Source of the DNA: Escherichia phage UPWr_E1
Reading direction: 5' to 3' (one strand)
Sequence record: PP418985.1
DNA: 64,000 nucleotides
Positions 2,967-61,564 of this stretch are shown here, piece by piece. Positions within the stretch are counted from its first letter, which is position 1. Each line of letters begins with the position of its first letter. The notes beneath the pieces were generated by a model, which worked only from the letters and a program-made list of their open reading frames with translations, did not search any database and was not told where the DNA came from. The position numbers were made by a program, and so were the translations under genes.

Positions 2967-3995
2967 ATGATTTACTACGCAGATTATGAAATAGCGGAAA
3001 AAGCCATATACGGCGAACGAAATTTTAAACGGTTGCATACTAGCTCATTTACGCTGGTCTGTAGTTGTCCGATCTGCGGTGACTCAAAGAAAAATCATAC
3101 TCAAGCGCGATTCCGTATCTATACCTATAAGGATAGTTTGCGTTGTGGCTGTTTCAACTGTAACTACAATCAGCCGTTAGGTGAATTTCTCAAACAGTAT
3201 AAGCCGGACCTATTCAGGGAATGGCTTATGGAGAGACGGAAGGAACAAGGCGACCACAAGAACACCACGTTCAAGCCACTGAAAAAGGTAGAAAAGCCGG
3301 AGATTAAGAAAGTGCAAACATTGCCTTTCTGTGAAAGATTAGATACTCTTCCGGCTAATCATCCTATAATAAAGTATGTCAGTGATCGTTGCATTCCCCA
3401 CGATAAATGGGATCTTCTGTATTTCACGAGAGAATGGCAAAAGGTAGCAAATCACATTAAGGCTGATACTTTTAAGAATCCGCAACCTGAACCGCGTTTA
3501 GTGATTCCTATCTTTAACCGTGAGAACAAGATAGAATCCATTCAGGGGCGAGCATTGAGAAAGGATTACGGAAAGACCAAATATATGACGATTAAAACTC
3601 ACGAGTTAGCGAGTAAGGTCTATGGTCTTGAACGCGCCGATCCGAGAAAGCCAGTGTATTTCTTAGAAGGTCCGATCGATTCATTGTTTATTGATAACGG
3701 GTGTGCAATTACTGGCGGTACTTTGGGATTAGATGAAATCCCTTTCCCAGACCAGCGAGTGTTTGTACTTGATGCGGAACCACGGTCAGCCGATACAATG
3801 CACCGACTGGAAAAGTTTATCAATGCAGGGGAAAAGATTGTTTTGTGGGATCGTTGTCCGTGGCATTCTAAAGACGTTAACGCCATGATTCAGGACGAGG
3901 GCGCTACACGCGACCAGATCATGGAATATATCAAAGAGAACACCGTACAAGGTCTGATGGCTAAAATGCGGTTTATGAAATATTGTAAATTTTAA
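2967..3995 (+). CDS. 61: DNA primase (gp61-like)
   Basis: 342 aa, the T4 gp61 length; N-terminal zinc finger CPICGDSKK...CGCFNC; SD GAGG upstream. Confidence 0.9.
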   Translation: MIYYADYEIAEKAIYGERNFKRLHTSSFTLVCSCPICGDSKKNHTQARFRIYTYKDSLRCGCFNCNYNQPLGEFLKQYKPDLFREWLMERRKEQGDHKNTTFKPLKKVEKPEIKKVQTLPFCERLDTLPANHPIIKYVSDRCIPHDKWDLLYFTREWQKVANHIKADTFKNPQPEPRLVIPIFNRENKIESIQGRALRKDYGKTKYMTIKTHELASKVYGLERADPRKPVYFLEGPIDSLFIDNGCAITGGTLGLDEIPFPDQRVFVLDAEPRSADTMHRLEKFINAGEKIVLWDRCPWHSKDVNAMIQDEGATRDQIMEYIKENTVQGLMAKMRFMKYCKF

Positions 3996-4597: not shown

Positions 4598-5101
4598 ATG
4601 CAATTTACACCAGAAGAACTTAACATCATTGATGAAGTGATGAACTCTAAAGAAAATATCGATATGTCGATCCTTAATGGATTGATTGAAAAGACTGAAC
4701 GGTTAGTGCATCATGAAGCCTTGTATCGCGGTGTGAGCAAAAGAGAAGGCCGTAAGCTGGATACCTTAATTGTAGGTGATTCTTTCGTTGTAGAGCGTCC
4801 TATGAGCTTTACGCCACTGCAATCAACAGCAGAGGACTTTGCAACCGATGTTTATGCAACAGGAAAGATTATTGCAATAAAACCTACCAAGCCTTGCATG
4901 AATTATTACGAACATGCTATTGATCGAGTGGTGTCTAAAGAGTATGACAATCCGACTACTCGACTGTCTTTGTATGCTATGTTGGCGGATGAGCGCGAGT
5001 GCATATACAAGACAGGGACGACCATGATCCTTGATGAGATCGAGGAAGTTTACGCATGTAACGGCGATCTGATAGAGATTTACAAATTTTCTTTAATTTA
5101 A
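4598..5101 (+). CDS. Hypothetical protein, candidate Mod-like ADP-ribosyltransferase
   Basis: 167 aa; ordered R (LYRGV), S-x-T (MSFTP) and E-x-E (DERECIY) motifs like R-S-E ADP-ribosyltransferases; sits where T4 carries modA/modB. Confidence 0.35.
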   Translation: MQFTPEELNIIDEVMNSKENIDMSILNGLIEKTERLVHHEALYRGVSKREGRKLDTLIVGDSFVVERPMSFTPLQSTAEDFATDVYATGKIIAIKPTKPCMNYYEHAIDRVVSKEYDNPTTRLSLYAMLADERECIYKTGTTMILDEIEEVYACNGDLIEIYKFSLI

Positions 5102-5162
5102 GTGTTGACAGCACAAACCAGATAGACAATAATACACACATACCAACTAAGGAGAATCAATT

Positions 5163-5918
5163 ATGAAACTGTTTGCTTTTAAATCTAACGAAGAATTGGC
5201 GCTGGTTGTTTTCCGTCTGAACTCTATCATGGCTGGCGCTTCTCGTCGTAACAAAGACTTCTCTATGAGCTTAGTCACTGTGCGTAACATCTATCGCCAG
5301 ACTCATTGCGCATATTCCGGTGAGGCTTTCGGTGAAGGTGATGACGGACTCTCCTTAGAGCGCATTGATTGCAATCTGGGATATGTTGATGGCAATGTAA
5401 TTCCGGTTAAACTGAAATACAATTCTTTCCGTGGTAATCATACTATCGAATCTCTTAAAGAGATCCAGGAACTAGGAACTAACGGTAAACTTTCTGATGA
5501 TGAAATTGCCCTACGTGCGAAGTACATCGAGTGGATCGAACTTAACGAGAATCGCATCAAAAATCAGGAAATGGCAATCGAAGAAAAGAAATTAGCAATC
5601 GAGCGCCACAAAAAGCACAACGAACCGGAGAAAGCAGATGCAGCCGAGCGAGCGATTAAAAATACTCTCTTCCGTATGGAAGAACGTTATCAGAAAATTG
5701 CAGATCTCAAGCAAGCCCTTAGCGAAATCAACAAGAAAGAGGAAAAACTTAAGGCTATTGCAAACAATACCGAAATCGTGCTAAAATATACCAGCGTTTT
5801 GATTGAATCTCTTTCTAAGTATGAGAACTTAACGCCAGCACAAAAAGAACGCGTGAAATACGGGCTTCCGATTGATGCGTCGTGGATTGAATTGATGAAA
5901 GCGAAGGTAGGTTTATAA
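5163..5918 (+). CDS. Hypothetical protein with degenerate HNH-like N-terminal region and coiled-coil C-terminal half
   Basis: 251 aa; CAYSG...ERIDCNLGY...GN resembles an inactivated HNH core; positional equivalent of T4 srd (about 250 aa). Confidence 0.3.
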   Translation: MKLFAFKSNEELALVVFRLNSIMAGASRRNKDFSMSLVTVRNIYRQTHCAYSGEAFGEGDDGLSLERIDCNLGYVDGNVIPVKLKYNSFRGNHTIESLKEIQELGTNGKLSDDEIALRAKYIEWIELNENRIKNQEMAIEEKKLAIERHKKHNEPEKADAAERAIKNTLFRMEERYQKIADLKQALSEINKKEEKLKAIANNTEIVLKYTSVLIESLSKYENLTPAQKERVKYGLPIDASWIELMKAKVGL

Positions 5919-10816: not shown

Positions 10817-10844
10817 TTGACATAAAAGGGAGATTCTCTATAAT
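10817..10844 (+). promoter_or_regulatory. Sigma70-type early promoter (TTGACA-16-TATAAT)
   Basis: Canonical -35 and -10; the -10 lies in the loop of inverted repeat GGGAGA/TCTCCC, which is followed by a T-run. Confidence 0.6.
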
Positions 10845-10878
10845 GGGAGTCTCCCTTTTCTTTTATGAGGATTTAATA

Positions 10879-11185: not shown

Positions 11186-11214
11186 TTGACACTGGATCGG
11201 GGATATATCATAAT
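11186..11214 (+). promoter_or_regulatory. Sigma70-type early promoter
   Basis: AAAAAGTTGTTGACA then 17 bp then CATAAT; GGGGA/TCCCC inverted repeat flanks the -10. Confidence 0.6.
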
Positions 11215-11244
11215 GTCCCCATCGAAAACAAAAGGTTGACTTAT

Positions 11245-18207: not shown

Positions 18208-18240
18208 AAGCCGATCCTCGTGGTCGGCTTTTTTATTTTA
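18208..18240 (+). terminator. Rho-independent terminator
   Basis: AAGCCGATCCTCGTGGTCGGCTT followed by TTTTATTTTA. Confidence 0.75.
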
Positions 18241-18521: not shown

Positions 18522-18550
18522 TTGACACCAGAACAAGGGAGTAGTAACAT
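18522..18550 (+). promoter_or_regulatory. Sigma70-type early promoter with -10 inside a hairpin
   Basis: TTGACA-17-TAACAT; GGGAGTA/TACTCCC inverted repeat encloses the -10. Confidence 0.55.
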
Positions 18551-18581
18551 ACTCCCACACCAAACAAAAGGAGAATCAAAG

Positions 18582-19307: not shown

Positions 19308-19317
19308 AAAATAGTTG

Positions 19318-19346
19318 TTGACAGGGGATCGCCGATCCCCTACAAT
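19318..19346 (+). promoter_or_regulatory. Sigma70-type early promoter with palindromic double-GATC spacer
   Basis: TTGACA then GGGGATCGCCGATCCCC then TACAAT. Confidence 0.65.
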
Positions 19347-19377
19347 GAACTCATCAAGACAACGAAGGAGAATCAAA

Positions 19378-19541: not shown

Positions 19542-19570
19542 TTGACACCGGATTAAGGGAGTAGTAAGAT
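19542..19570 (+). promoter_or_regulatory. Sigma70-type early promoter with -10 inside a hairpin
   Basis: TTGACA-17-TAAGAT; GGGAGTA/TACTCCC. Confidence 0.6.
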
Positions 19571-19604
19571 ACTCCCATCAAGACAAAACACTGAGGAATA
19601 TATT

Positions 19605-22625: not shown

Positions 22626-22632
22626 AAAAGAA

Positions 22633-22657
22633 GGGGAGGCCGAAAGGCTTCCCCTTT
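22633..22657. terminator. Bidirectional terminator between convergent early genes and holin
   Basis: AGGGGAGGC-CGAAAG-GCTTCCCCT with A-run before and T-run after. Confidence 0.65.
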
Positions 22658-24543: not shown

Positions 24544-24581
24544 TTAAGATCCTTAGCGGGGAGAAATCCCCGCTATTTTAA

Positions 24582-38367: not shown

Positions 38368-38378
38368 TGAATTTTACA

Positions 38379-38402
38379 GCCTCCCTTCGGGGAGGCTTTT
38401 TT
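38379..38402 (+). terminator. Rho-independent terminator after gene 32
   Basis: GCCTCCC-TTCG-GGGAGGC followed by TTTTTTATT. Confidence 0.8.
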
Positions 38403-43677: not shown

Positions 43678-43686
43678 AAATAAGTG

Positions 43687-43715
43687 TTGACGCGGGGAGA
43701 AATCCCCGCTATAAT
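43687..43715 (+). promoter_or_regulatory. Sigma70-type early promoter with palindromic spacer
   Basis: TTGACG then CGGGGAGAAATCCCCGC then TATAAT. Confidence 0.6.
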
Positions 43716-43746
43716 ACAACCATCAAAAACAAGTGAGGATTTTATT

Positions 43747-46231: not shown

Positions 46232-46261
46232 TTGACACTGAATAACGGGGGGTAGTAATAT
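46232..46261 (+). promoter_or_regulatory. Sigma70-type early promoter with -10 inside a hairpin
   Basis: TTGACA-18-TAATAT; GGGGGTA/TACCCCC. Confidence 0.55.
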
Positions 46262-46294
46262 ACCCCCATCGAAACGAAACAAAGGAGAATCAAA

Positions 46295-46513: not shown

Positions 46514-46542
46514 TTGACAGCATGAAACGGGGGTAGTAATAT
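46514..46542 (+). promoter_or_regulatory. Sigma70-type early promoter with -10 inside a hairpin
   Basis: TTGACA-17-TAATAT; GGGGGTA/TACCCCC; near-identical to the 46232 copy. Confidence 0.6.
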
Positions 46543-46583
46543 ACCCCCATCGAAACGAAACTAACTTACTAAGGAGTATCAAG

Positions 46584-46982: not shown

Positions 46983-46989
46983 TAAGGTG

Positions 46990-47015
46990 GGCGGGAGAAA
47001 TCCCGCCTTTGTTGT
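46990..47015 (+). terminator. Rho-independent terminator
   Basis: GGCGGGA-GAAA-TCCCGCC followed by TTTGTTGT. Confidence 0.65.
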
Positions 47016-52413: not shown

Positions 52414-53896
52414 TATCATTAATCAGCTTGCAGCAACAGACAAAACATCTCTGAAAGAAAAGATTCTGAAAGAATCTGCAAGCAATGAAACACTGAAAGA
52501 ATGCTTTTATCTGGCATATTGCAAACAGGTTACGTTTGGCGTAAAGAAATACGATAAACCATCGCGTTATTCGTCTGTATTGTCTTTATCTGGTGCATTA
52601 CAGGTCTTTAAAAATAAACTTGCCACGCGTCAAGTAACTGGTAATGCAGCATTACAGCTAGTTACCGATACTCTGACTTGCTTGTCAGAAGATGATGCTA
52701 AAGTTGCAATGATGGTCCTGAATCGCGATCTAGAATGCGGTTGTTCCGCTACCACTGCAAACAAGGTATGGAAGAAACTGATCCCCCAGCAACCATGCCA
52801 CCTTGCATCGTCATATTCTGATAAGGCTATTGCTAATATCAAATATCCGGCATATGCACAACTTAAAAGTGATGGCGCTCGTGGTATGGCTGATATTGAC
52901 GGGGAAACATTAGCAATCTATACCCGTTCAGGTAATACCTATCAGGGACTTGATGATTTGTTTGCTGTTTTAGAGCGTCTACGAGGCCGTGGAATTGTTC
53001 TAGATGGCGAATTGGTATATATGCCTACCCTTTCGCAAACACCAGCGCAGAACTTCGTTGAAAGCGTTTATGATGGTACTCTGTCATGGATATTTGAAGA
53101 AGAGGAAATGCCATTAACGCCAGTAGCGGAAGCAGTAAAAGAATCCGTTGTTGCAGATCGTCAGACCGGAAATGGTATCCTCAACAAATCACTGAAAGGA
53201 ACTATTCCAAAAGAAGAAGCCCAATGTATTGTTTACACTGTCTGGGATGTTATCGACCGTGATGTGTATTACGGAAACGAGAAAGCAACGAAGCAATATA
53301 AAGATCGATTCGAAGAACTAAAACAGATTGTTGAAGAACTTAACGATCCTCGTGTGCAGATAATCGAAAATACTGTAGTTAACAATATCGATGAAGCTCG
53401 CGAAGTATATCATCGCTATGTAAACATGGGCTTAGAAGGTATTATCCTTAAAAATTTACATGGTGTATTTGAAGATCGTCGCAGTAAAGATCAGGTTAAA
53501 TTTAAAGAAGTGATTGACTTCGACGCGGAAATTGTTGATGTATATCCGCATAGTAAAGATCCTAATAAGGTAGGCGGTTTTACTGTCCGTAGCGCGTGCG
53601 GACGAATGATGACTAACACCGGATCGGGATTGACAGACACCACAACCGAAAAAGGTGATGATGGTATCGAACGTGTGATTCCGTTAGATCGTCGAAATGA
53701 ACTTGACCGAGAAATGTTATGGGCTGACCGTCATAACCTGATTGGAAAAGTCATCGAGATGACATGCAACGGGTATATCCGCAGCAAATCACGTAAAGAA
53801 GATGAACCGGAGTTCTCTTTATTTCTCCCGATCATCAAACGTATTCGCTACGACAAGACCACTGCAAATACAGTAAAAGAGGTATTCGATGTGTGA
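52394..53896 (+). CDS. 30: ATP-dependent DNA ligase (gp30-like)
   Basis: 500 aa; adenylation motif I QLKSDGARG (KxDGxR), motifs EGIILK and downstream OB region. Confidence 0.9.
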   Translation: MKMSILNIINQLAATDKTSLKEKILKESASNETLKECFYLAYCKQVTFGVKKYDKPSRYSSVLSLSGALQVFKNKLATRQVTGNAALQLVTDTLTCLSEDDAKVAMMVLNRDLECGCSATTANKVWKKLIPQQPCHLASSYSDKAIANIKYPAYAQLKSDGARGMADIDGETLAIYTRSGNTYQGLDDLFAVLERLRGRGIVLDGELVYMPTLSQTPAQNFVESVYDGTLSWIFEEEEMPLTPVAEAVKESVVADRQTGNGILNKSLKGTIPKEEAQCIVYTVWDVIDRDVYYGNEKATKQYKDRFEELKQIVEELNDPRVQIIENTVVNNIDEAREVYHRYVNMGLEGIILKNLHGVFEDRRSKDQVKFKEVIDFDAEIVDVYPHSKDPNKVGGFTVRSACGRMMTNTGSGLTDTTTEKGDDGIERVIPLDRRNELDREMLWADRHNLIGKVIEMTCNGYIRSKSRKEDEPEFSLFLPIIKRIRYDKTTANTVKEVFDV

Positions 53897-54365
53897 TAAT
53901 GAAGGGGCGAAAGCCCCTAAACCTAAAAAATTGTCAAAGAAAGAGCAACGCCAGATCCTGAAAATGAAATACGGTGGACGTTGTGCCTATTGTGGCGAGG
54001 AACTAGGGGATCGCTGGCACGCAGACCACATCAAACCAGTATTACGACGCTCAAAAGTAGTCTATGATGAAAATGGACGAATTGCCCGTAATGATGATGG
54101 ATCGTGGAAGTATAAGGTTGTAGGAATGCATAAACCGGAGCATGATATACTTGATAACATGAATCCGGCGTGTGTGCAATGCAATCTTTATAAAAGCTGT
54201 ATGGGCTTAGAATACTGGCGTAAGTGTATACGCGAGAACTTCCAGAAGTACATTCAGCGCAATATGGGATTGCGAGCGGCTAAACGCTTTGGCTTACTGT
54301 CAATCCACGATCAGCCAGTAGAATTTTATTTCGAAAAGTACGAGCGCGAGCATCAAGAAAAATAA
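53889..54365 (+). CDS. HNH endonuclease
   Basis: CAYCGEELGDRWHADHIKP ... NMNPACVQCN: HNH with zinc-binding cysteines; overlaps ligase stop. Confidence 0.7.
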   Translation: MCDNEGAKAPKPKKLSKKEQRQILKMKYGGRCAYCGEELGDRWHADHIKPVLRRSKVVYDENGRIARNDDGSWKYKVVGMHKPEHDILDNMNPACVQCNLYKSCMGLEYWRKCIRENFQKYIQRNMGLRAAKRFGLLSIHDQPVEFYFEKYEREHQEK

Positions 54366-54378
54366 TTCAAAAAAGTTG

Positions 54379-54407
54379 TTGACAGGGGATCACCGATCCC
54401 CTATACT
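54379..54407 (+). promoter_or_regulatory. Sigma70-type early promoter with palindromic double-GATC spacer
   Basis: TTGACA then GGGGATCACCGATCCCC then TATACT. Confidence 0.6.
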
Positions 54408-54441
54408 ACACACATACCGAAACGAACTAGGAGAATCAATT

Positions 54442-55596: not shown

Positions 55597-55625
55597 TTGA
55601 CAGGGGATCGGTGATCCCCTATAAT
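55597..55625 (+). promoter_or_regulatory. Sigma70-type early promoter with palindromic double-GATC spacer
   Basis: TTGACA then GGGGATCGGTGATCCCC then TATAAT. Confidence 0.65.
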
Positions 55626-55659
55626 GCACACATACCAACGAGATATAGGAGAATCAAAA

Positions 55660-55830: not shown

Positions 55831-55859
55831 TTGACAATGATTAAAGGGAGTAGTAAGAT
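55831..55859 (+). promoter_or_regulatory. Sigma70-type early promoter with -10 inside a hairpin
   Basis: TTGACA-17-TAAGAT; GGGAGTA/TACTCCC. Confidence 0.6.
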
Positions 55860-55892
55860 ACTCCCATCAAGACAACAAACGGAGAATCAAAA

Positions 55893-57374: not shown

Positions 57375-57403
57375 TTGACATAAGATCGGGTGTATAGCAT
57401 AAT
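57375..57403 (+). promoter_or_regulatory. Sigma70-type early promoter with -10 inside a hairpin
   Basis: TTGACA-17-CATAAT; GGGTGTAT/ATACACCC. Confidence 0.6.
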
Positions 57404-57449
57404 ACACCCATCGAAACGAGATACACTTTCTAACTAGGAGAATCAAATT

Positions 57450-58093: not shown

Positions 58094-58117
58094 TTTTATT
58101 AGCCGACCTTAGTGTCG
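58091..58117 (+). terminator. Rho-independent terminator (PeSL-type cassette)
   Basis: AGCCGAC-CTTAGT-GTCGGCT followed by TTTTTATT; promoter follows. Confidence 0.75.
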
Positions 58118-58151
58118 GCTTTTTATTGCCAAAAATTTTTTAAAAAAGGCA

Positions 58152-58606: not shown

Positions 58607-58632
58607 GCCGACCTTAGTGTCGGCTTTTTTAT
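58607..58632 (+). terminator. Rho-independent terminator (PeSL-type cassette)
   Basis: GCCGAC-CTTAGT-GTCGGC followed by TTTTTTATTT; same hairpin as 58091. Confidence 0.75.
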
Positions 58633-59360: not shown

Positions 59361-59390
59361 TTGACGGGGGATCGGGAGATCCCCTATAAT
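59361..59390 (+). promoter_or_regulatory. Sigma70-type early promoter with palindromic double-GATC spacer
   Basis: TTGACG then GGGGATCGGGAGATCCCC then TATAAT; drives the operon ending in the MTase-like/Zn-ribbon/DUF262 genes. Confidence 0.6.
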
Positions 59391-59430
59391 ACACACATCA
59401 AGACGAGATACTACTTAGGAGAATCAAACA

Positions 59431-59682
59431 ATGGCTAACATCGAAACCGCAAAGAAAATCGCTAAAGACCTGAACGTTAAAGGCTTCCGTAAACTGAAAT
59501 TACAGCGTGTACGCTACACCATCGGCAAACAGTGCTCTTTCATGAGCGAAGAAGTTGCTAACAGCCTCATCGATAATCTGATTGCGGCTGGCTGGGAAGT
59601 TGCGGATCTGAAAACTTGCCGCGAACTGGCTAACAAAGGTCTTTTAGATTCTGTTACTATCAAACCAATGGGGGCAGCGTGA
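59431..59682 (+). CDS. Hypothetical small early protein
   Basis: Promoter 59361-59390 upstream; first gene of a four-gene early operon. Confidence 0.45.
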   Translation: MANIETAKKIAKDLNVKGFRKLKLQRVRYTIGKQCSFMSEEVANSLIDNLIAAGWEVADLKTCRELANKGLLDSVTIKPMGAA

Positions 59683-60395
59683 AACAAAAATTAATATTCT
59701 GCAACTTTGACGGATCGGGGATAATGGGGCTAGAATGGGCTAAAGCAGGTCATAAGGTGATCTGCTTTAATGCTGACGATGGCGACCACGGTACATACAA
59801 AAAATATAATACCCGATTTGAACATCCAAACATTACCTATGTAAACACATGGATTGATTTGAACTGGCTGGAAAGAGCAATGGACCTTGAATGGGGGAAA
59901 CCGGATATTATATTTGCATTCCCACCGTGCACCAATTTAGCTGTTAGTGGCGCTGCACACTTTGAACGAAAGAAACGAGAGCAAGGACCATTAATTCAAG
60001 TTCATGATGTAAGGGCAGCTAAAATAACCGCTTATTTGGGCGAATGGTTAGGAGTTCCCTACATGATAGAGAATCCTGTAAGCGTTATCTCTAGCATGTG
60101 GCGTAAGCCTGATTATATGTTCCATCCGTGGGAATATGGCGGTTATTTGCCGGAAGATGATAAACATCCTACGTTTCCTGAGTATATTGCCGCCCGTGAT
60201 ATGTACCCGAAAAAGACTTGCTTATGGACCGGACAAGGCTTTATAATGCCAGAAAAGAAACCGTTGCAGATTAATAAAGGGTACAGTAAACAGCATTCTA
60301 AGCTAGGCGGGAAAGGAACCAGAACAAAGACTATCAGGTCACTTACACCGCGAGGATTCGCAAAGGCAGTATTTGAAGCCAATAAGGATCTATGA
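59679..60395 (+). CDS. C5-cytosine-methyltransferase-like protein (short; function uncertain)
   Basis: 238 aa; motif I-like FCNFDGSGIMG, motif IV-like Pro-Cys FAFPPCTN, motif VI-like MIENPVS; no obvious target-recognition domain. Confidence 0.4.
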   Translation: MKQKLIFCNFDGSGIMGLEWAKAGHKVICFNADDGDHGTYKKYNTRFEHPNITYVNTWIDLNWLERAMDLEWGKPDIIFAFPPCTNLAVSGAAHFERKKREQGPLIQVHDVRAAKITAYLGEWLGVPYMIENPVSVISSMWRKPDYMFHPWEYGGYLPEDDKHPTFPEYIAARDMYPKKTCLWTGQGFIMPEKKPLQINKGYSKQHSKLGGKGTRTKTIRSLTPRGFAKAVFEANKDL

Positions 60396-61252: not shown

Positions 61253-61281
61253 TTGACAGGGGATCATCGATCCCCTATAAT
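61253..61281 (+). promoter_or_regulatory. Sigma70-type early promoter with palindromic double-GATC spacer
   Basis: TTGACA then GGGGATCATCGATCCCC then TATAAT. Confidence 0.65.
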
Positions 61282-61313
61282 ACACACATACCGAAACGAA
61301 AGGAGAATCAAAC

Positions 61314-61499: not shown

Positions 61500-61528
61500 T
61501 TGACATAACAGAGGGTGTATATCATAAT
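61500..61528 (+). promoter_or_regulatory. Sigma70-type early promoter with -10 inside a hairpin
   Basis: TTGACA-17-CATAAT; GGGTGTAT/ATACACCC. Confidence 0.6.
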
Positions 61529-61564
61529 ACACCCATACCGAAACGAACTACTAAGGAGTATCAA

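Follow-up and report, generated by a model that had tools for sequence, protein, structure and literature searches.

Six early promoters of Escherichia phage UPWr_E1 hold a hairpin-forming sequence between their -35 and -10 hexamers and are likely cassettes in which a strong early promoter houses an RNA hairpin that acts on read-through transcripts, with GATC sites as a passenger. The analysed window is a stretch of 64,000 nucleotides from sequence record PP418985.1. Its identity to RB49 is ~ 95%, as it is to some 60 further coliphages of the genus Krischvirus (RB49-like, T4-type), and the six sites are almost certainly the published promoter-early stem-loops (PeSLs). The elements are already known, and the present analysis largely re-discovers a published element. 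The original prediction, made from the sequence alone, described promoters and palindromes correctly, but their recognition as published PeSLs was missing.

Palindromic spacers and their identity with PeSLs

The motif GGGGATC-N{3,4}-GATCCCC is present in five copies in the window (stem-loop coordinates are listed below), as the original prediction had it, and is absent from all dinucleotide-preserving shuffles (0 in 100/100). A relaxed version of the pattern retrieved the identical five sites and added none. All copies are on the + strand, framed by TTGACA or TTGACG as -35 and TATAAT, TATACT or TACAAT as -10 hexamers, in support of the proposal that early promoters of the sigma70 type are present. 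Four of them have a spacer of 17 bp (7+3+7); the description as a 17-bp near-perfect palindrome with two GATC sites is valid for these four, while at 59361 the spacer is palindromic but comprises 18 bp, with a 4-nt loop. The related spacer proposed for a sixth promoter, at 43687, was found as claimed (CGGGGAGAAATCCCCGC). At all six sites the hexamers match the consensus at 11-12 of 12 positions, and an A/T-rich tract is located upstream. Spacers alone fold with ~ -10 to -12.5 kcal/mol, forming stems GGGGATC/GATCCCC or CGGGGA/TCCCCG, and a strong hairpin inside the spacer characterizes only 6 of ~ 49 sigma70-like matches in the window. No copy of the palindrome was found away from promoters, either in the window or among the 6 copies in the whole RB49 genome. 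Spacer-class PeSLs of the window are the following:

19318..19346, + strand: -35 TTGACA (19318-19323), stem-loop GGGGATC-GCC-GATCCCC (19324-19340), -10 TACAAT (19341-19346); stem of 8 bp if the flanking A/T is counted (19323-19341, + strand); downstream gene start 19378 (MKHTHKLM); orthologue of RB49 PeSL264/263
43687..43715, + strand: TTGACG, different stem, (G)CGGGGA-GAAA-TCCCCG(C) (43692-43709), TATAAT; GNRA loop, no GATC; downstream gene start 43747 (MTKLKCVA); RB49 PeSL 234/233
54379..54407, + strand: TTGACA, GGGGATC-ACC-GATCCCC (54385-54401), TATACT; downstream gene start 54439 (MNFNEIIA); orthologue of RB49 PeSL210/209
55597..55625, + strand: TTGACA, GGGGATC-GGT-GATCCCC (55603-55619), TATAAT; downstream gene MFQTKAEC; RB49 PeSL206/205
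59361..59390, + strand: TTGACG, 18-bp spacer with GGGGATC-GGGA-GATCCCC (59367-59384), TATAAT; sense-strand loop of the GNRA type; downstream gene start 59431 (MANIETAK); RB49 PeSL 191/190
61253..61281, + strand: TTGACA, GGGGATC-ATC-GATCCCC (61259-61275), TATAAT; downstream gene start 61314 (MKHLTIES); RB49 PeSL 187/186

About 51 to 52 PeSLs have been described in RB49 and phi1, each made up of an AT-rich tract, a consensus sigma70 promoter, a stem-loop, a Shine-Dalgarno sequence and ATG; five subclasses are distinguished by the position of the stem-loop, those between -35 and -10 or overlapping -10 being the commonest (Arbiol et al. 2010, PMC2839356). Their stem has been given as "G(N)-loop-C(N)" (Comeau et al. 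2014, PMC4122927). RB49 orthologues, matched via downstream genes, exist for all six window sites, and the annotation of each of these genes (p186, p190, p205, p209, p233, p263) is "hypothetical protein". Window site 55597 and PeSL206/205 do not differ in -35, spacer or -10 (TTGACAGGGGATCGGTGATCCCCTATAAT); 54379 matches PeSL210/209 in these three parts as well, and 43687 matches position 134549 of RB49. Alignment of cassettes shows homology over ~ 75-90 bp, and the sites have one layout: an upstream stop codon, the intergenic cassette, a Shine-Dalgarno sequence, and then the ATG that opens a small gene with no assigned function, all within a hyperplastic region. Compared with PeSLs of RB49 and phi1, the genus, cassette order, G(N)-loop-C(N) stem between -35 and -10, and location upstream of small ORFans are the same. 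Nothing essential differs, and the window has its own assortment of variants, such as the ATC loop at 61253, or the GATC-type stem at 59361 where the RB49 PeSL has GGGGAG/CTCCCC. Neither Arbiol et al. (2010) and Comeau et al. (2014) nor the later literature found mentions GATC, Dam or palindromes.

In published experiments (Arbiol et al. 2010, PMC2839356), the identical element worked as a promoter, a sister element behaved in a terminator-like manner, and mini-circles were detected. In that study, the PeSL206/205 promoter reached ~ 13,000 Miller units in a lacZ fusion cloned in E. coli DH5alpha, and most clones of tested PeSLs had acquired mutations in -35 or -10, from which the authors concluded that the native promoters are intolerably strong. 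The stem-loop of PeSL211/210 cut downstream lacZ as much as rrnB T1, in a test comprising one construct and read out as lacZ rather than as RNA 3' ends, and PeSL210/209 flanks the ORFan210 mini-circle (Arbiol et al. 2010, PMC2839356). The PeSL211/210 element (TTGACAGGGGATCACGTATCCCCTATACT; spacer GGGGATCACGTATCCCC) has a GGGGAT/ATCCCC stem with one GATC only, and belongs to the same stem family.

Natural variation of stems, loops and GATC sites

Scanning of RB49 disclosed 37 early-promoter cassettes, 12 of which are of spacer-hairpin types. Two GATCs are present in 6 of these 12 and one in 2 (GGGGGTCACCGATCCCC and the PeSL211/210 spacer), while 4 have none (GGGGAGGATAACTCCCC twice, and CGGGGAGAAATCCCCG[C/T] twice). 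In the total of 61 spacer-class cassettes from 10 genomes or regions, the numbers with two, one and zero GATCs are 43, 5 and 13, respectively. Metagenome contigs added the spacer variants GGGGATCGGTGGTCCCC, GGGGAGACACCCTCCCC, GGGGGGAGTATAACTCCCC and GGGGACGCCGATCCCC; the exact-motif scan of IMG/VR gave only two contigs of Krischvirus size and is therefore a small sample. A loose scan of the same collection (AAAGTTGTTGAC-N-TAYAMT) yielded chance matches in unrelated contigs and no extra cassettes among the matches listed.

Variants which lost a GATC and kept the hairpin include GGGGGTC..., GGGGTC..., ...GGTCCCC, ...GTATCCCC and GGGGACGCC..., and at least four different natural changes delete a GATC yet leave a stable hairpin. 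Orthologous sites illustrate this. The site preceding MANIETAK is of the GATC type in the window and has GGGGAG-GATAA-CTCCCC, without GATC, in RB49, GEC-3S, FL20 and Phi1. The site preceding MNFNEIIA, of the GATC type in the window, has GGGGGGAG.../CTCCCC in two metagenome contigs. In the RB49 orthologue of 61253 (GGGGGTC-ACC-GATCCCC), a G.U pair is formed on the sense strand and one GATC is lost. All observed stem substitutions are within the inner ATC/GAT triplet, and none was seen among compared cassettes in the G4/C4 core, which is common to all three stem families. Spacing between the arms also differs, being N3, N4 or N5 (RB49 GGGGAT-CACGT-ATCCCC), and so does the position of the hairpin, which in sister cassettes is around -10 or upstream of the promoter (also in Arbiol 2010). 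In addition, stem variants are exchanged between orthologous sites across genomes. As judged from the sequences of these natural variants, GATC is shown here to be dispensable to the cassette.

Loops vary as well. Triloops at 19331-19333, 54392-54394, 55610-55612 and 61266-61268 differ between genomes at the same site (RB49, GEC-3S, Phi1, FL20, L130-L154), and their set includes the reverse-complement pairs ACC/GGT and GCC/GGC. These pairs could have arisen by loop inversion through template switching at the palindrome, or stepwise through ACC, GCC, GGC and GGT, all of which are observed. For the 4-nt loops GGGA, GCGA and GAAA, flipped forms were never seen among the compared sites.

Sense-strand signals and related hairpins

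Promoter hairpins built as GGG-xyz...z'y'x'-CCC have inner stems made of the triplets AGT/ACT, GGT/ACC, TGT/ACA, GAT/ATC, GAG/CTC, GGA/TCC and GGC/GCC. Intermediates with G.T were found in 4-5 distinct arm combinations, against one with A.C. Triplets were tabulated register-free, and MAFFT alignment of hairpins with "-10 inside the loop" put five 5' arms two columns off. Three independent A>G changes inside GATC keep a sense G.U pair, with sense energies of -9.4 to -9.8 kcal/mol. In the RB49 and Phi1 variants the antisense strand folds with only -6.3 and -6.5 kcal/mol, because it receives a C.A mismatch. RB49 has 26 perfect hairpins with a 4-nt loop, and this loop is of the GNRA/UNCG type on the sense strand in 14 of them and on the antisense strand in none (~ 5% expected by chance). 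Four of these 14 are spacer-class PeSLs, and two are of the GATC family (loops GCGA and GGGA). Window sites with GNRA-type loops are 59361 (GGGA) and 43687 (GAAA); other places in the window tied to this strand bias are 38378-38397, 22630-22657, 53903-53918 and 46989-47008. Members with a 3-nt loop (4 of 5 GATC sites) have a perfectly palindromic stem and thus no strand-specific signal of their own. Single internal mismatches are sense-compatible in only four cases, against two antisense-compatible ones, and lend no clear support to either strand.

These sequence comparisons show here that selection acts on pairing rather than on sequence, with signatures of a sense-strand RNA, and the strand-specific signals favour an RNA hairpin formed on read-through transcripts. 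Comparison of sense and antisense folding energies (sense more stable in 52 of 61) was dropped as evidence due to shared stems and to loop and dangling-end terms; the G.U counts, 12 against 19, disagree with it.

Sister cassettes and stand-alone hairpins in the window are the following:

55831..55865, + strand: sister PeSL of the "-10 inside the loop" class, TTGACA ... GGGAGTA-GTAAGA-TACTCCC (55846-55865)
18537-18556, 19557-19576, 46248-46267, 46529-46548, 57388-57409, 61513-61534, 11199-11220, 10824-10859: more "-10 inside the loop" hairpins
58101..58130, + strand: stand-alone hairpin followed by a T-run, of canonical intrinsic-terminator shape, ~ 30 nt upstream of promoter 58152
58607-58624, 38378-38397, 18208-18230: further stand-alone hairpins

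Terminators composed of a hairpin and a T-run are located ~ 30-50 nt upstream of other early promoters (58101/58152, 58607/58655, 38378/38430), and such a stand-alone terminator before a promoter is the uncompressed form of the PeSL module order. The stem-loop of 43687 (GCGGGGA-GAAA-TCCCCGC) recurs at 24554-24575 with no promoter and is followed there by a T-run (TATTTTAATT). This copy is located where the window aligns with late tail-fibre genes of RB49, which run on the opposite strand.

Spacer hairpins have energies of -12 to -15 kcal/mol, compared with -11.2 kcal/mol for a canonical terminator in the window. PeSLs share with intrinsic terminators a GC-rich RNA hairpin of 7-8 bp, a loop of 3-4 nt (some GNRA), location just after a stop codon, and comparable stability. 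They differ in that terminator hairpins are followed by a U-run, while the spacer hairpin of a PeSL runs into the -10 hexamer, with UAUAAU or UAUACU as its tail. The consensus terminator scan flags the stand-alone hairpins 58101 and 58607 and does not flag spacer hairpins, which are likewise unflagged by ARNOLD in the annotation of a related genome. No Rfam family matched the hairpins at gathering thresholds, and there was one chance-level hit (E < 1). In the sense RNA, the conserved GUUG just before -35 can pair with the -10 hexamer, partly by G.U (19313-19352, 43683-43717), whereby the hairpin is lengthened to ~ -16 to -20 kcal/mol; this pairing may be a by-product of two consensus hexamers.

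Proposed function and alternative explanations

In the proposed mechanism, the cassette of ~ 75-100 bp is ordered as upstream stop codon, AT-rich tract, GTTG-TTGACA, hairpin, TATAAT, A/C-rich leader, ribosome site AGGAGAATCAA and ATG, and the host sigma70 RNA polymerase would initiate at its promoter straight after infection. As deduced from geometry, the hairpin is upstream of the start in every class and the mRNA of the cassette itself should lack it; since it ends before the expected start, it would be carried only by RNA that reads through from the gene upstream. In such RNA, a stem-loop of ~ -12 to -15 kcal/mol, with the A/U-rich -10 sequence after it, is predicted to stop or attenuate the incoming polymerase and/or to cap the 3' end of the upstream mRNA. 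By blocking or capping the upstream transcript in this way, the hairpin would turn each small early gene into an insulated unit. Placed in the spacer, it would represent a terminator and a promoter packed in ~ 70 nt. Conserved cassettes are suggested to double as homology patches through which recombination shuffles flanking ORFans, and the GATC pair would simply be the three innermost base pairs of the most frequent stem variant, copied between sites by recombination.

The proposed units can be compared with morons of lambdoid phages, which are also single small genes, each flanked by its own transcription signals. In contrast to them, the PeSL fuses promoter and terminator in one conserved cassette that is itself the homology used in shuffling. 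The comparison is discussed in Arbiol et al. (2010, PMC2839356). The ribosome site AGGAGAATCAA, common to all cassettes (54424-54434, 55645-55655, 59415-59425, 61299-61309), contains GGAG, and regB is annotated in RB49. The T4-type RegB endoribonuclease cleaves at GGAG, and the presence of this motif in the ribosome site would fit inactivation of early mRNAs by this enzyme.

Termination is the likely main role at the RNA level, based on one published reporter assay, and at these particular sites termination or attenuation, beyond 3'-end protection alone, is inferred to prevail. An RNA hairpin could instead be only a barrier that shields processed upstream early mRNAs from 3' exonucleases, without any termination. 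Hairpins that protect 3' ends typically have a stable, GC-rich stem and a GNRA/UUCG loop, and both such stems and the lack of a U-run in spacer hairpins are in line with this explanation. The reduction of lacZ by the PeSL211/210 stem-loop to the level of rrnB T1 is, however, unexpected of a pure stabiliser, and protection and termination are compatible with each other. A barrier function alone appears rather unlikely. It is improbable that the palindrome acts chiefly on DNA, folding into a single-strand hairpin or a cruciform and thereby promoting recombination or template switching, in which case the sites would chiefly be recombination hot spots rather than transcription signals. PeSL-to-PeSL mini-circles have been detected, and in RB49 one crossover was placed within the loop (Arbiol et al. 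2010, PMC2839356), cassette variants are swapped between orthologous sites, triloops form reverse-complement pairs, and a gene for an HNH endonuclease adjoins the first cassette of the variable region. Nevertheless, stems of 7-8 bp are presumably short for cruciform extrusion, homologous exchange needs only the conserved cassette and not a palindrome, and single substitutions via triloops that are themselves observed would also suffice to connect the triloop variants. Moreover, the sense bias of GNRA/UNCG loops (14 vs 0) and G.U-tolerant variants would be unexpected for a purely DNA-level signal. The HNH endonuclease ORF is located at 53889-54365 (Pfam HNH, E = 5e-6), directly upstream of the 54379 cassette.

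The same variation bears on the two regulatory explanations offered in the original prediction, a dimeric DNA-binding protein and methylation control. An operator for a phage or host dimer, switching this subset of early promoters, would agree with the near-perfect dyad in the spacer, since a protein bound there would obstruct RNA polymerase, and with the GGGGATC/GATCCCC stem being the same at five window sites; this sameness is, however, explained by cassette homology together with exchange between sites. A conserved half-site at fixed spacing and fixed position was not found among the compared cassettes. On the contrary, half-site spacing is inconstant (N3 to N5), orthologous sites in other genomes have different stems, including swaps to GGGGAG/CTCCCC and CGGGGA/TCCCCG, belonging to three unrelated families, and the hairpin shifts to -10 or upstream of the promoter in sister cassettes. 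Changes of A>G in one arm break DNA symmetry and keep RNA pairing, which is also preserved through compensatory changes, while 4-nt GNRA loops restricted to the sense strand would be meaningless for a double-stranded DNA site. Promoters of the MerR type likewise have a dyad between -35 and -10, in an over-long spacer of 19-20 bp that the regulator must distort. Unlike them, PeSL spacers have the optimal 17-18 bp instead of a long spacer, and the promoter is very strong alone. An operator function is therefore highly improbable.

Control by Dam or SeqA, with promoters active, for example, on fully methylated injected DNA and sequestered when hemimethylated after replication, is very unlikely as well. 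Promoters controlled in this way exist in E. coli and its elements, e.g. IS10 pIN, dnaA, pap and agn43, the majority of spacer-class cassettes (43/61) have two GATCs, and RB49 is annotated with its own dam gene, given which its DNA is probably methylated. PeSLs share with these promoters a GATC within the promoter and differ from them in that their GATCs are dispensable, located in the spacer rather than in hexamers or in a regulator site, only 3-4 bp apart, and unenriched. The hairpin outlives GATC in several natural variants, 13 of the 61 cassettes have no GATC, and changes are confined to inner ATC/GAT with the G4/C4 core untouched. In the window, 354 GATC sites correspond to an observed/expected ratio of 1.02, thus to expectation, and of 23 GATC pairs up to 12 bp apart (~ 17 expected), 18 are outside these promoters and 5 are in them. 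DH5alpha, the cloning host mentioned above, is a dam+ strain. PeSL206/205, with two GATCs, was nonetheless very strong when cloned in it (Arbiol 2010). Hemimethylated sites that share a helical face are preferred by SeqA, whose binding was tested at separations of 5-34 bp (PMC2691817); the two spacer GATCs are below this range and not on one helical face. GATCs on the same face, at permissive spacing and conserved in relatives, as expected of a SeqA target, were not found at these promoters. There is likewise only a slight chance that the GATC stem variant is the commonest for a reason beyond copying, with methylation (by host or phage Dam) or a GATC-reading protein modulating a subset of promoters; if true, a MotA-less phage would gain an extra layer of early-gene timing atop the RNA role of the hairpin. 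In the window, GGCC is strongly under-represented (27 observed vs ~ 72 expected, ratio 0.38), which may reflect restriction avoidance. No Pfam family was matched (E <= 0.001) by ORF 59679-60395, which in relatives carries the annotation DNA methyltransferase, Dcm or C-5 cytosine methylase.

The combined promoter and RNA hairpin, being the preferred explanation, also has consequences for annotation. A mechanical ORF with TTG start at 54376 (LLTGDHRSP...) is in frame with the real start MNFNEIIA, and reading through 19318 in the same way gives MLTGDRRSP, as read off the sequence; spurious N-termini in ORF-finder translations that cross the palindromes, as stated in the original prediction, are thus real at both sites. 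Very short "hypothetical protein" CDSs are present in or beside intergenic gaps in several deposited Krischvirus annotations, such as FL20 (L008) at 3339-3434 and 5045-5140, and FL38 (L139) at 5119-5214, and these CDSs may have arisen as read-through artefacts, like the extended N-termini.

The tetraloop bias, together with compensatory and G.U variation, brings modest added support to the published RNA role, in a form unquantified in the original papers. For annotators, the GATC pair gives no ground to infer methylation control. In annotation of RB49-like genomes, the ~ 29-bp units should be marked as promoter and stem-loop, and TTG- or ATG-extended N-termini that cross them should be trimmed.
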